A stretch of 64,000 nt of DNA, from positions 1-64,000 of IMG/VR virus record IMGVR_UViG_3300010354_000062. The stretch is one strand, 5' to 3'. Source of the stretch: a virus. Below, piece by piece: positions 21,661 to 36,881 of the stretch (position 1 is the first letter of the stretch; the number at the start of each line of letters is the position of its first letter). Position numbers and translations under genes: made by a program. The notes under the pieces were generated by a model. The model made no database searches and was not told the origin of the DNA. It saw only the letters and a list, made by a program, of their open reading frames with translations.

Positions 21661-22686
21661 ATGGCAACACTAAAAAATCTTACAATCAATGACACTGGAT
21701 TTTTAAGATTACCTTCGGGAACAACTGCTGAAAGACCAGGAAGCCCGTTAGCTGGAATGATAAGGTATAATACTACCTTAGCAGCTAACGAAGTTTATAA
21801 TGGTACCGAGTGGCAAACTGTACAAGAACAAACAGTTGGTTCTACTAGCACAGGTGGAGCTATTACCACAACCGGCGGATTTAGAATTCATACCTTTACC
21901 AGCGGAACAAATACATTTACTCCTACAAAAACAGGTGTAGTTGATGTACTAGTAGTTGCTGGTGGCGGTGGTGGTCACAGTATTAGCGGAGGCGGCGGCG
22001 CCGGCGGTTATATTTTTGTTTCTGGCGTGCCAGTTGTTGCAGGTACTGCTTATCCAGCCGTAATAGGTACCGGTGGTAATGGATGTTCAAGCCATAGTGC
22101 CAATGATGCACAGTCCGGTAACCCATCTACATTTGGTGGTAGTACTCCGGTGGCTATAGTATCAACTGGTGGTGGTAGAGGAGCTCATTATCCTCCAGGC
22201 GGTCAACCATCTGCTGGAGGCGGATCAGGTGGTGGTGGACCAGGATGGAATGGCGGACCGGAAACTATTCATGCTGGTGGTACTGGCACGGCAGGTCAAG
22301 GACATCCAGGGGGTGTTGGAGCACATTACAACGGCACACCAACTGGTACACACTACGGTGGTGGTGGCGGTGGCGGAGCCGGAACTATGGGTTACGGACG
22401 TTCAAATCGTAATCAACAAGGTCGTGGTGGAGAAGGAATGGCATCTAATATTGGCGGCAGCGTCACATGGCGAGCAGGTGGAGGTGGTGGTGGATATCAT
22501 AGTCCCAGCCACGGAGTGTCGACACTTGCAGGTAGAGGAAGTTTAGGTAACACATTACCAGGACAAAATGGTCAAGCAGGTGGTACAAATCTTGGTGGTG
22601 GTGGTGGTGGCGGACCATATAGTCCAGAACCACAGGGTGGCGGACCAGGCGGACCAGGTGTAGTTATAGTTAGGTATAGAGGTTAA
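21661..22686 (+). CDS. Glycine-rich adhesin-like fibre protein 1
   Basis: N-terminal MATLKNLTINDTG..LPSGTT module; RIHTFT, VLVVAGGGGG, GGAGG, GVVIVRY motifs. Confidence 0.75.
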   Translation: MATLKNLTINDTGFLRLPSGTTAERPGSPLAGMIRYNTTLAANEVYNGTEWQTVQEQTVGSTSTGGAITTTGGFRIHTFTSGTNTFTPTKTGVVDVLVVAGGGGGHSISGGGGAGGYIFVSGVPVVAGTAYPAVIGTGGNGCSSHSANDAQSGNPSTFGGSTPVAIVSTGGGRGAHYPPGGQPSAGGGSGGGGPGWNGGPETIHAGGTGTAGQGHPGGVGAHYNGTPTGTHYGGGGGGGAGTMGYGRSNRNQQGRGGEGMASNIGGSVTWRAGGGGGGYHSPSHGVSTLAGRGSLGNTLPGQNGQAGGTNLGGGGGGGPYSPEPQGGGPGGPGVVIVRYRG

Positions 22687-22688
22687 TA

Positions 22689-23777
22689 ATGGCAACTTTA
22701 AAAAATGTTACAGTCAACGACACTGGTTTTGTACAAGTAGCCTCTGGTACTACCGCACAAAGAACATCAGCTAATGGCGATCTAAGATACAACAGTGAAA
22801 CTAATGAAGTTGAACAATATGTCAATGGTGCATGGCGTACAGTTGACGAATCAATTAGTGCAAGTTCGGGCACAACCATTGCCACAGGCGGTACAATTAC
22901 TACCGCAGGTGGATATCGTATACACACATTTACAACTTCTGGAACATTTAATGCTCCCTATACAGGTAGAGCTGAAGTTTTAGTTGTTGCTGGAGGTGGC
23001 GGTGGTGCACCTATTGGAGGTGGTGGTGGCGCGGGCGGTTATGTATTCACAGCATCAGTTCCAGTTGCAGGCGGAACTAATTATACAGTTACACGTGGTA
23101 ATGGCGGCAGCGGTGGCTTCCACCATTATTCAGATGAAGGACAAGCTGGCGGTCCAAGTTCGTTTGTAGGACCAACAGTATCAATTACAGCTACAGGTGG
23201 CGGCAAAGGCGGTTTTTATGGTAGCGGGTCGCCAATTCCTGCAATGAGCGGAGGATCAGGCGGTGGTGGCCCAGGCGGCAACGGTTCTTCGGGCACAACA
23301 TACACATCATATCCAGGAGAACATCCTGGTGGCACCGGTGTAATAGGCCAAGGGCATCCAGGCGGATACGGCCACCATGGTACCGGTCCGGGATATCCAA
23401 ATCCTGGTTGTCAAGGTTCAGGTGCTACACACGCTGGAGGATCAGGTGGCGGCGCGGGATCAAGAGGTATTAGTAGATATTCTAATTGGGTACGTTGTCA
23501 CGGAGGCCAAGGACTTACAAATGCAGTAAGCGGTAGTGCAGTAATTTATGCAGCAGGCGGAGCAGGCGGCACACACGTAAATCCTTATTACGGACACAGT
23601 CCTGATCCAGGTGGTGCCGGCGATGGCACCGGTAATAGCGGAACACACGGCGGCGCGGTGGCTACGGCAGGAGGAGCTAATCGTGGTGGTGGTGGTGGTG
23701 GTGGCGCACACCCAGGCGGAGAAAATCCAGCAGGTGCCGGCGGAACTGGCGTAGTCGTAGTTAGATACAGGGTATAA
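22689..23777 (+). CDS. Glycine-rich adhesin-like fibre protein 2
   Basis: Same scaffold motifs as 21661..22686 with different loops. Confidence 0.75.
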   Translation: MATLKNVTVNDTGFVQVASGTTAQRTSANGDLRYNSETNEVEQYVNGAWRTVDESISASSGTTIATGGTITTAGGYRIHTFTTSGTFNAPYTGRAEVLVVAGGGGGAPIGGGGGAGGYVFTASVPVAGGTNYTVTRGNGGSGGFHHYSDEGQAGGPSSFVGPTVSITATGGGKGGFYGSGSPIPAMSGGSGGGGPGGNGSSGTTYTSYPGEHPGGTGVIGQGHPGGYGHHGTGPGYPNPGCQGSGATHAGGSGGGAGSRGISRYSNWVRCHGGQGLTNAVSGSAVIYAAGGAGGTHVNPYYGHSPDPGGAGDGTGNSGTHGGAVATAGGANRGGGGGGGAHPGGENPAGAGGTGVVVVRYRV

Positions 23778-23779
23778 AA

Positions 23780-24976
23780 ATGGCAACACTTAAAAATTTA
23801 ACAGTAAACGACACAGGATTTATTAGATTACCACAGGGCACAACCGCTCAAAGACCTGGTTCGCCTGTAGCTGGTCAAATAAGATTTAATACTGATTATA
23901 GTAGAAACGAAGTCTATAATGGTTCAGCTTGGGTACTACTTGAGCACAGCGCATATGCTACGGGAGGCTCAGTGACTGCAAGTGGTGGTTATCGTATTCA
24001 TACTTTTACATCTGGCGCAACTACCTTTACTATGACCTATCCAGGAACTGTAGAAATTCTTGCAGTAGGGGCCGGTGGTGGTGGTGCCCAAATTGGTGGT
24101 GGTGGTGGCGCTGGTGGATTTATTTATGAATCTGGAACTAGTTTACCTGCTGGAAATTATACTGTCACTGTAGGCACTGGCGGAGATAGAGAAACACAAC
24201 ATAATGCTAATAATCAAAATCCTGGTAATCCTAGTAGTGTAGTTGGTCCAGGTATACCGCAAATGTATAATGCCATTGGTGGTGGTCGCGGTGCTTCTTA
24301 TACTTCTCAACACTCTGTGGTTAGATTATGTAATGGTGGCTCAGGTGGCGGCGGACCAGGCGGTCACAGCGGATCTGCAGGCGGTGAAGGTGGCTGGTGG
24401 CCACAGGCACCAGGCGGCCACGGAAATCAAGGTGCTGATCATCCGTGGTTAGCAGGCATGCCCAATGCTACTCTACAGGGAACACCAACTGGAAATAACA
24501 ACGACCATATTAGTATGGAAGGTAACGGTTATGGCAGCGGAATTATAGGTCAAGGACACCCTGGAGGATTTGGAGCTCACGGCGGTGGCTTTGGTTGGGC
24601 AGCAGGCAGTAACACTATTCACTGCGGTGGTGGTGGCGGCGGAGCAGGATCATCAGGTAAACCAACTTCAAGCGGCAACGAAATGGGAACAGGTGGCGCA
24701 GGACTAGCCAGCCAAATTACAGGTACATTAACAAGATATGCCGGCGGTGGTGGCGCAGGAACGCACGGCCCGGGTGGCTATGGACATTACGGACTCCAGG
24801 GTGCTCATGGAGGTGGCCTTAATTCTTTTGGTGGCGGTGAGGGCGGCACTGGTAGTGCAGCTGGACAAAATGGCGGCACAAACACCGGCGGCGGCGGCGG
24901 CGGCGGTTTCTGGGGTAATACGCAAAGCGGCTCGGGCGGCCCTGGATTAGTAGTTATTAGATATCGCGATCAATAA
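23780..24976 (+). CDS. Glycine-rich adhesin-like fibre protein 3
   Basis: Same scaffold with a long His/Trp/Asn-rich insertion. Confidence 0.75.
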   Translation: MATLKNLTVNDTGFIRLPQGTTAQRPGSPVAGQIRFNTDYSRNEVYNGSAWVLLEHSAYATGGSVTASGGYRIHTFTSGATTFTMTYPGTVEILAVGAGGGGAQIGGGGGAGGFIYESGTSLPAGNYTVTVGTGGDRETQHNANNQNPGNPSSVVGPGIPQMYNAIGGGRGASYTSQHSVVRLCNGGSGGGGPGGHSGSAGGEGGWWPQAPGGHGNQGADHPWLAGMPNATLQGTPTGNNNDHISMEGNGYGSGIIGQGHPGGFGAHGGGFGWAAGSNTIHCGGGGGGAGSSGKPTSSGNEMGTGGAGLASQITGTLTRYAGGGGAGTHGPGGYGHYGLQGAHGGGLNSFGGGEGGTGSAAGQNGGTNTGGGGGGGFWGNTQSGSGGPGLVVIRYRDQ

Positions 24977-36267: not shown

Positions 36268-36271
36268 TAAA

Positions 36272-36279
36272 TATTTATA
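36272..36279 (-). promoter_or_regulatory. T4-consensus late promoter TATAAATA heading the oxygenase/halogenase operon
   Basis: Reverse strand reads ctataaata-ttta-ATG(36267). Confidence 0.7.
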
Positions 36280-36305
36280 GACCTAAATCTTACATATAGC
36301 TAATC

Positions 36306-36881
36306 ATGATAAAAATTATAGATAACGTAACATCACTAGCCAACGTAGCCTACTTAGAATCATTGATGCTAGATCAGCCGTGGACTTACCTAAAGAGTAC
36401 AGCATACAACCAGTACAATACAGAAAAAACACCCTACGATCCATCATGGGCTAACACAATGTACAATTTTGATGAGATACGTAGTCCTCTAATGACACAC
36501 GCCCAATCAATATTAATTAAGGCCCTGCATATGGAAAACCTAACCATAAGCAAGTTAATTAGGATAAGAGCCGGTATGACTACCAGAACTCCATATCCAG
36601 TTGTACATGCGCCTCATGTAGATTGGGATAATTTTCACATGACCGCCCTTTATTATCTAAATGATGCCGACGGTGAAACAATATTTTACAAAGAAACTAG
36701 AGACGAAACTTTAGAACAATCTAGTTTCGAATGGGCAAAAGACCATCAATTTACAGTAGAACAAAGAGTAAAACCTAAAGCTGATAGAATGGTCATTTTT
36801 GATGGTAGAATTTTTCATTCTAGCACATCACCAACTTCTGTTGATTATAGAATGACCATAAACTATAATTGGTTGCCTTAA
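36306..36881 (+). CDS. Fe(II)/2OG oxygenase (HxD)
   Basis: [26 protein letters not shown]. Confidence 0.8.

Follow-up and report, generated by a model that had tools for sequence, protein, structure and literature searches.

Which molecules are modified by the 11 predicted Fe(II)- and 2-oxoglutarate (2OG)-dependent oxygenases and the two predicted flavin-dependent halogenases encoded next to three glycine-rich fibre genes in the IMG/VR virus record IMGVR_UViG_3300010354_000062? We addressed this question by computational analysis of the first 64 kb (the window) of this 78-kb virus contig. The enzyme island is a tandem dioxygenase/halogenase/dUTPase-fold array of the type present in cyanophage Syn9, and is not new in kind. 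Action of the array on the adjoining Gly_rich_2 fibre proteins is, in our assessment, the single most likely mechanism, although it is unproven and we give it a probability of only about one in three. The genes concerned, with the principal matches on which their assignments are based (P4H, prolyl 4-hydroxylase; AF2, AlphaFold2; pLDDT, predicted local distance difference test), are as follows.

21661..22686, plus strand: GLY1, a Gly_rich_2 fibre or fibre-tip-type protein of 341 residues, 30% Gly and 2.9% His (PF21722, E 1.1e-13; phrog_2295; fibre N-terminal families).
22689..23777, plus strand: GLY2, a Gly_rich_2 paralogue of 362 residues, 45% identical to GLY1 across the first 220 residues (PF21722, E 6.8e-11).
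23780..24976, plus strand: GLY3, a Gly_rich_2 paralogue of 398 residues (PF21722, E 5.2e-14).
24976..25404, plus strand: u142, a protein of 142 residues, the start of which overlaps the GLY3 stop; no family match in library searches.
25412..25990, plus strand: oxA1, a subfamily A 2OG-type oxygenase (HxH...H) with TAAATA-N4 ahead of it (PF13759, E 1.3e-18; TIGR02466; phrog_81).
25981..26529, plus strand: oxA2, a divergent subfamily A oxygenase (PF13759/PF13640, E ~1e-6; phrog_81).
26526..27119, minus strand: oxA3, subfamily A, the last gene in the minus-strand operon (PF13759, E 1.6e-25).
27116..27700, minus strand: oxA4, subfamily A, 55% identical to oxA3 (family search and blastp).
27705..28292, minus strand: oxB5, subfamily B, HxD...H...R (weak PF13640 match; phrog_274, E 2.6e-32; alignment).
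28289..28879, minus strand: oxB6, subfamily B (family searches and alignment).
28876..30444, minus strand: HAL1, a predicted flavin-dependent halogenase of a lineage distinct from that of HAL2 (PF04820, E 1.9e-94).
30428..31102, minus strand: a 224-residue protein with an N-terminal GDS motif and virus-only relatives (weak DUF6071 lead).
31106..31696, minus strand: oxC7, P4H-like, HxE...H (PF13640, E 8e-15; B. anthracis P4H 3itq, E 5e-9; PBCV-1 P4H 5c5t).
31693..32256, minus strand: oxB8, subfamily B (family searches and alignment).
32258..32911, minus strand: oxD, the eleventh oxygenase, of the cyanophage 'ferrochelatase-domain' family T4-GC615/phrog_2954 (phrog_2954, E 4e-43).
32918..33562, minus strand: oxC9, P4H-like, HxD...H...K (PF13640, E 1.2e-15; 3itq, E 1.7e-8; P4H and LH3 matches).
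33552..35150, minus strand: HAL2, a predicted VirX1-type flavin-dependent halogenase (PF04820, E 5e-102).
35147..35524, minus strand: u125, directly upstream of HAL2, with which it stays in close relatives; no family match.
35521..36267, minus strand: u248, the first operon gene, a Syn9 gp43-type protein (phrog_7084; weak DUF6065 lead).
36272..36279, minus strand: TATAAATA, a late-type promoter motif 4 nt ahead of the u248 ATG.
36306..36881, plus strand: oxB10, subfamily B, divergent from the operon (PF13640, DUF6445; phrog_274, E 1e-40; AF2 model with pLDDT 92).

According to the proposed mechanism, the array would be made late, together with the fibres, and at least its conserved core (the VirX1-type halogenase, oxC9 and oxD) would act on the neighbouring fibre-tip proteins of the Gly_rich_2 family, which are rich in Gly and His. 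Hydroxylation, for example of Pro or His side chains, would be the task of the oxygenases; the halogenases would use host FADH2 (the reduced form of flavin adenine dinucleotide, FAD) and halide to halogenate exposed aromatic or imidazole side chains; and, through the variable set of further oxygenases, the surface that binds the receptor would become chemically more diverse.

The evidence that carries this proposal is principally genomic. Whole-genome PF21722 scans place 18 of 21 Gly_rich_2 matches within 1.5 kb of a halogenase in seven of nine cultured cyanomyoviruses, and in Sf-CH11 a group of five enzymes has a Gly-rich gene at either end. Many IMG/VR relatives either retain the Gly-rich/enzyme order of the window or intermingle the two kinds of gene; thus, among the loci of relatives that we compared (denoted by L numbers, e.g. 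L003, with L090 being S-CREM1), L016-L019, L036 and L037 have Gly-rich genes in among the halogenases, and a third halogenase lies in the fibre operon, on the same strand and directly after GLY3, in L041/L057 and L005. Linkage to fibre genes in relatives, the absence of which the initial annotation had named as a ground for abandoning its interpretation, is therefore widespread, both in cultured genomes (7/9) and in IMG/VR. The late-type motif of the array is common to virion genes, and in cultured phages NATAAATA precedes the Gly-rich genes and the pre-halogenase open reading frame (ORF). With respect to the enzymes, subfamily C sequences match peptidyl prolyl and lysyl hydroxylases, and the models of subfamilies B and D have PPHD, PHD2 and algal P4H as their closest counterparts. 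The composition of the candidate substrates is also consistent with tailoring: Gly-rich clusters within five genes of a halogenase are richer than the rest in His (2.0 vs 0.9%, p ~0.01), Tyr (4.0 vs 2.8%) and Trp (1.0 vs 0.65%), values which are uncorrected for phylogeny, and at L067, which has the same fibre module and no island, both Gly-rich proteins lack any His, compared with ~3% in GLY1-3. A 2OG oxygenase has been found in purified S-SCSM2R virions (PMC12801897).

The array itself is best understood by comparison with named systems. The Syn9 neighbourhood (gp41-gp54) encodes ten dioxygenases in tandem, drawn from at least five families, together with two halogenases of the tryptophan type and a protein of the dUTPase fold in which a Cys is conserved (Iyer, Abhiman, de Souza and Aravind 2010, PMC2938197); S-SCSM1 is reported to have 24 oxygenases (PMC9964418); and S-CREM1 (ORF69-80) has one halogenase followed by nine oxygenases. 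When a Syn9-type array is taken to comprise at least five dioxygenases of several families, a halogenase and a gp43-type Cys protein, the corresponding components here are 11 oxygenases in four families, two halogenases and u248, with C62. The likeness extends from the tandem, small Fe/2OG oxygenases of several unrelated families, the one to several VirX1-like halogenases and the gp43-type protein to the late-type promoter motifs and to the slot occupied, i.e. after two or three Gly_rich_2 genes and before gp13-15. The order large fibre protein, two to three Gly-rich genes, small ORF, halogenase(s), gp43-type protein and oxygenases is common to Sf-CH11, Syn9, S-RIM44, S-CREM1, P-RSM6, S-WAM1 and P-TIM40; the gp13-15 neck genes come directly after the array in Sf-CH11 and S-RIM44, and the island in the window lies between the tail-fibre module and the same neck genes. 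In 52 IMG/VR loci with HAL2 relatives (47-92% identity) the island is located between the fibre module and gp15, with an enzyme content that varies widely around a recurrent HAL2-oxC9-oxD core. Differences from the Syn9-type arrays are that the present one belongs to a ~350-kb freshwater lineage with a 498-residue gp15 and a chaperonin adjoining the island, that most of it is inverted relative to the fibre genes, and that its second halogenase, HAL1, is of another lineage (28% identity). In addition, the JmjC/MINA-type member (Syn9 gp49), which is not universal in published arrays, was not detected, family searches of the island proteins having found neither JmjC nor Cupin_8. What the window adds is a freshwater jumbo-phage example together with comparative evidence, rather than a new kind of system.

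All three of the genes that had been annotated as Gly-rich fibre genes match PF21722 (Gly_rich_2; E 1e-13, 7e-11 and 5e-14). Their products contain 29-30% Gly and ~3% His, with HPGG and GPG triplets, any X-Pro-Gly hydroxylation of which is hypothetical. GLY1 gave no match to PDB sequences, and its likeness to the gp38-type polyglycine-II adhesin of phage S16 is in composition only. When GLY1 was searched against phages by tblastn, its N-terminal 55 residues alone were matched, because of low-complexity masking. The neighbouring u142, homologues of which adjoin GLY genes in L003-L010, L029, L037, L041 and L044, is a putative fibre accessory protein or chaperone. In the S-CREM1 record, a second Gly_rich_2-like stretch (54758-55282) with five in-frame TAA codons lies just ahead of the annotated 'collagen-like protein' and may be a decayed paralogue.

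Among the oxygenases, ten of the 11 match PF13759 or PF13640. The exception, oxD, has no Pfam match and no match to PDB sequences; it is counted because 25 aligned homologues all have H101, D103, H152 and R154 and because its AF2 model (pLDDT 89.5) matches 2OG oxygenases, with PPHD, PHD2, OkaE and SnoK as top Foldseek matches. Pairwise blastp resolves four subfamilies, i.e. A (four genes, at 25412, 25981, 26526 and 27116; TIGR02466/PF13759/phrog_81), B (four genes, at 27705, 28289, 31693 and 36306; phrog_274), C (two P4H-like genes, at 31106 with HxE and at 32918 with HxD...H...K; phrog_61) and D (one gene, at 32258; HxD...H). The classical HxD/E...H triad is present in seven of the 11 (B, C and D), with the four subfamily A members having a conserved HxH...H instead. 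Subfamily B has invariant H104, D106, H171 and R182 in alignment, and a basic residue for the 2OG C5-carboxylate is available as R182 in B, R154 in D and a Lys in oxC9. The AF2 models (pLDDT 89-92) match the double-stranded β-helix fold of 2OG oxygenases. The three-His site of subfamily A is unusual for 2OG oxygenases; its only solved relatives are 2rg4 and 3bvc, the nearest structures to oxA3, both of which are uncharacterised. The initial annotation had described 11 oxygenases from several subfamilies with HxH, HxD and HxE triads, and this inventory holds, ten being recognised by Pfam and the eleventh by its residues and model.

Similarity of oxC7 and oxC9 to microbial and viral P4Hs (3itq/5hv0; 5c5t) covers the catalytic domain (E 5e-9 to 1e-6) and the His/acid/His triad and, in the case of oxC9, the 2OG-binding Lys, but the alignment is confined to the C-terminal 90 residues, the acidic residue of the oxC7 triad is Glu instead of Asp, and the proteins adjoining oxC7 and oxC9 are poly-Gly rather than collagen-type G-X-Y. 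A related arrangement occurs in bacterial dioxygenase clusters that co-encode tail-collar or secreted glycine-rich, collagen-like proteins, which have been proposed as the substrates (PMC2938197). Those clusters likewise set hydroxylases beside glycine-rich surface proteins; however, they contain beta-hydroxylases, PhyH enzymes and sulfotransferases, and the same authors gave the cyanophage arrays a secondary-metabolite proposal instead. The Foldseek matches for oxB10 are led by PPHD, PHD2 and algal P4H. Both it and oxD are in the PHD/P4H-like part of the superfamily, but the Foldseek lists of the two models mix protein-acting and small-molecule enzymes (template modelling scores of ~0.55-0.65), and the predicted folds are compatible with either class of substrate.

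These assignments bear on the possibility of an AlkB-like or TET/JBP-like role for the oxygenases in nucleic-acid repair or modification. A nucleic-acid role was proposed for cyanophage 2OG oxygenases located by uvsY/uvsW (Weigele 2007, in the account given by Sullivan 2010), in S-B64 a single 2OG oxygenase gene separates uvsY from uvsW, and subfamilies B and C carry 'endonuclease'-type PHROG names. None of the 11 oxygenases, however, matches the AlkB or TET/JBP families, their nearest sequences and folds are protein hydroxylases, and the array lies in the late structural region, away from repair genes. We consider this explanation very improbable; a DNA-repair reading was set aside because of the family searches and the late structural location. 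The PHROG 'endonuclease' names look like annotation errors, as do the names of phrog_274 ('DNA endonuclease V') and phrog_2954 ('ferrochelatase'), since the members of these two families in the window have the 2OG-oxygenase triad and fold.

The annotation of two proteins as flavin halogenases with intact FAD, Lys and WxWxIP motifs is borne out by their sequences. Both give full-length PF04820 matches and both have the FAD motif VGGGSAGW, the WxWxIP motif (GWVWKIP and GWVWNIP) and GFIEPLE; the catalytic Lys aligns to VirX1 K79 (SYKMSIKF vs TYKNSIRF), and the motif positions are invariant in 19 homologues. The two are, however, only 28% identical to one another. The best solved match of HAL1 is Th-Hal (5lv9, E 2e-60), whereas that of HAL2 is VirX1 (6qgm, E 4.8e-100), with which it shares the FAD motif, Lys, WxWxIP motif and Glu over its full length at ~37% identity. 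VirX1 of cyanophage Syn10 (6qgm) is reportedly the subject of work by Gkotsi and colleagues in 2019.

MibH is an established precedent for a flavin-dependent halogenase acting on a ribosomal peptide. It is, however, among the weakest solved matches of both enzymes (5uao; E 5e-47 for HAL2 and 3e-34 for HAL1). Further, a search of 24976-36881 for a precursor peptide of a ribosomally synthesized and post-translationally modified peptide (RiPP), or for a leader, recognition element or leader peptidase, found none, the smallest ORFs (125 and 142 residues) being without family matches. The 'RiPP-like' part of the virion-decoration hypothesis is therefore not supported: with neither precursor peptide nor recognition element, the candidate substrates are structural-type proteins of 340-400 residues.

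VirX1 has a large, open active site and accepts many small aromatics in vitro, with no preference for Trp (PMC8407142). Such promiscuity is one reason for considering that the substrate is a free metabolite made in the infected cell (an amino acid, a peptide or a sugar derivative), the enzymes yielding an organohalogen secondary metabolite or decorating a surface glycan, i.e. the type of role proposed by Iyer et al. in 2010 and 2021 (PMC2938197, PMC7824862). The association underlying the secondary-metabolite proposal recurs in our comparisons, in that cellular HAL2 homologues lie by TonB-dependent receptors, an esterase or a flavin-dependent monooxygenase (FMO). The Foldseek lists of oxD and oxB10 also hold OkaE, SnoK/SnoN, HygX, FtmOx1 and PolD, and in S-MbCM6 the halogenase is beside a carbamoyltransferase and metabolic genes. 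Nevertheless, family searches found no scaffold builder (nonribosomal peptide synthetase, polyketide synthase, ATP-grasp, carbamoyltransferase or methylase) in the island, the enzyme set differs between near-identical phages, unlike that of a fixed pathway, and an antibiotic made late would be of little gain to a lytic phage. A small-molecule pathway also leaves the recurrent placement beside or among Gly-rich genes unexplained, and on balance we regard it as somewhat improbable.

The timing of expression is relevant to the fibre-tailoring proposal and to its alternatives. The minus-strand operon (36267 to 26526, 9.7 kb), the genes of which overlap or are at most 6 nt apart, begins as originally described at a late-type promoter motif, TATAAATA at 36279-36272, 4 nt before the first ATG. 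This octamer occurs twice in 64 kb, compared with 7.5 expected, both times immediately ahead of an ATG. The TAAATA noted ahead of the plus-strand pair is likewise real (25402-25407, preceding oxA1), and fits a TAAATA/TAAGTA-N4-5-ATG pattern; oxB10 has no TAAATA motif of its own. Of 65 genes, ~10 have TAAATA or TAAGTA 4-5 nt before the ATG, among them oxA1 at 25412 and the virion genes at 40665, 42088, 48220, 51254 and 53134, whereas the chance expectation for TAAATA-ATG placements, from 44 TAAATA sites in 128 kb (both strands), is ~0.05. Given the depletion of the motif and a start-codon placement far above chance, it is reasonable to regard TATAAATA and TAAATA as putative late-type promoters. 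Sites such as those at 25402, 36272, the 40665 region, 42077, 48209, 51243, 53123 and 60909 leave no room for a Shine-Dalgarno sequence, a spacing that suggests that the late transcripts may be leaderless.

A late-type promoter would be odd, compared with early or middle control, for enzymes directed at the host, i.e. if they were auxiliary gene products that hydroxylate host translation factors or ribosomal proteins, or that consume 2OG to steer nitrogen signalling, their proximity to fibre genes being incidental. Modulation of 2OG/NtcA was proposed by Sullivan et al. 2010, PHROGs file these oxygenase families under auxiliary metabolic genes, the nearest folds of oxB10 and oxD include that of PPHD, an EF-Tu prolyl hydroxylase, and halogenases are located among replication or photosynthesis genes in S-B64 and S-MbCM6. 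On the other hand, consumption of 2OG needs no eleven diverse paralogues, and a host-directed role accounts for neither the halogenases nor the conserved HAL2-oxC9-oxD core; we consider it improbable.

One of the three proteins initially left as unknowns, u248, is recognisable as a Syn9 gp43-type protein, to which Iyer et al. 2010 assigned the dUTPase fold and homologues of which sit after the halogenases in Syn9, S-RIM44 and S-CREM1; its C62, D80, H109 and K125 are invariant in alignment, and its profile found no match among PDB sequences. The SGNH-like label given to the product of 30428-31102 was not confirmed, there being only the N-terminal GDS motif and no match in Pfam, PHROG or NCBIfam.

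Several observations weigh against action on the fibre proteins. The halogenase of S-B64 (47% identical to HAL2) lies among recombination genes, 85 kb from the only Gly_rich_2 gene of that phage, and that of S-MbCM6 is beside psbA in a genome with no Gly_rich_2 gene. Arrays in L011-L013, L032 and L054 have no Gly-rich gene in reach; conversely, in several phages the 10 kb to either side of the Gly-rich genes is free of the enzymes, although contigs seemingly without enzymes are fragments. L067 and L070 keep the fibre module with zero and four enzymes, respectively (in L070, four oxygenases and no halogenase), from which it follows that the enzymes are dispensable for building fibres. Cellular HAL2 homologues (31-40% identity), with the neighbours noted above, have no adjoining Gly-rich genes, and VirX1 halogenates small molecules in vitro. 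The composition contrast ignores phylogeny and rests on few unlinked clusters. Finally, permutation of gene order within ±10-kb loci gave a mean halogenase-to-Gly-rich distance of 3.7 genes, compared with a null of 3.8, in a test that is not discriminating at this scale; the signal is therefore one of module-level linkage, explicable by conserved synteny, and the linkage may be synteny inherited at a hyperplastic site.

In its strongest form, this last argument would deny that the array has one function: unrelated mobile enzyme genes would accumulate in a hyperplastic region that lies between the fibre genes and gp13-15, with the Gly-rich receptor-binding cassettes as another frequently exchanged cargo. 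Cyanomyoviruses have documented hyperplastic regions near g15-g18 (Millard 2009, as related by Sullivan 2010), from none to at least 13 enzymes are found behind the same fibre module, and the permutation shows no extra halogenase/Gly-rich proximity within loci. Base composition points the same way, with the island genes (25400-36900) at 27-38% G+C, compared with 40-52% for the fibre genes and ~40% for the remaining structural genes; GGN codons raise the Gly-rich genes to 50-52%. Random cargo would, however, be expected to be more mixed than is observed. The same families return at the slot over very large distances (HAL2 at 37-92% identity), the order of the HAL2-oxC9-oxD core and the gp43-type protein are conserved, and in one relative, of 186 kb, the island accounts for all three halogenases and for five of the six Oxy_3 matches. 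We consider collection of unrelated cargo unlikely, slightly more so than host-directed action. Overall, the initial interpretation of the locus as a virion-tailoring system is supported in part: the linkage, the shared late-type motif and the P4H-like subfamily C argue for it, whereas the unlinked halogenases of S-B64 and S-MbCM6, the arrays without a Gly-rich gene and the small-molecule contexts of the cellular homologues argue against it.

The phage that carries the array is an uncultured, freshwater T4-like phage. Its genome is roughly 350 kb, given a CheckV completeness of 22% for the contig; near-identical DNA is present in independent freshwater metagenomes, and a megablast search of the island against GenBank phages gave no match. 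The gene order of the window is T4-like: as far as 25 kb the plus strand encodes baseplate and fibre proteins, and the enzyme island comes next. The fibre module includes giant proteins of 1842 and 2557 residues, a 106-residue fibre-type protein and an S74-chaperone fibre. Beyond the island, a Cpn60 chaperonin, small ORFs, gp15 and a virion protein are encoded on the minus strand, followed on the plus strand by a gp13-like adaptor, sheath, tube, large terminase, gp32 and UvsX. Three of these neighbouring genes are of particular note.

12663-20336, plus strand: fibre protein of 2557 residues with five CBM_5_12 carbohydrate-binding modules (E 4e-40).
36878-38467, minus strand: full-length Cpn60/GroEL-type chaperonin, which adjoins the island and converges on oxB10 (PF00118, E 1e-78).
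39169-40665, minus strand: gp15, 498 residues.

The chaperonin keeps its place in the closest relatives (L003-L007, L041). The best full-length alignments of gp15 are with jumbo phages (the PA5oct group, Atu_ph07 and Phosso; ~33% identity), not with the ~266-residue gp15 of cyanomyoviruses. Complete Gly-rich/halogenase/oxygenase arrays are also carried by contigs filed as bacterial genomes or metagenome-assembled genomes (MAGs) (L103, L105, L106, L108 and L130), examples being a Nonlabens xiamenensis contig and Sphingobacterium and Acidimicrobiaceae MAGs; these arrays are probably of phage origin, their DNA having been binned with the assemblies or being integrated in them.

The role of phage 2OG oxygenases and of VirX1 has been a question since 2007-2010, and phrog_61 and phrog_81 are among the largest phage protein families. 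Our results raise the possibility, which as a generalization we advance only tentatively and regard as doubtful, that tailed phages of several lineages employ fast-evolving, dedicated enzymes for late hydroxylation and halogenation of Gly/His-rich Gly_rich_2 fibre proteins, and so chemically diversify their receptor-binding tips. If this were true, the natural substrate of the VirX1-type viral halogenases would be a virion protein, and the modification would be the first case of a phage virion protein being enzymatically halogenated or hydroxylated, and would give phages a new means of tuning adsorption. Gain or loss of enzymes would then provide a route to host-range change alongside fibre mutation.

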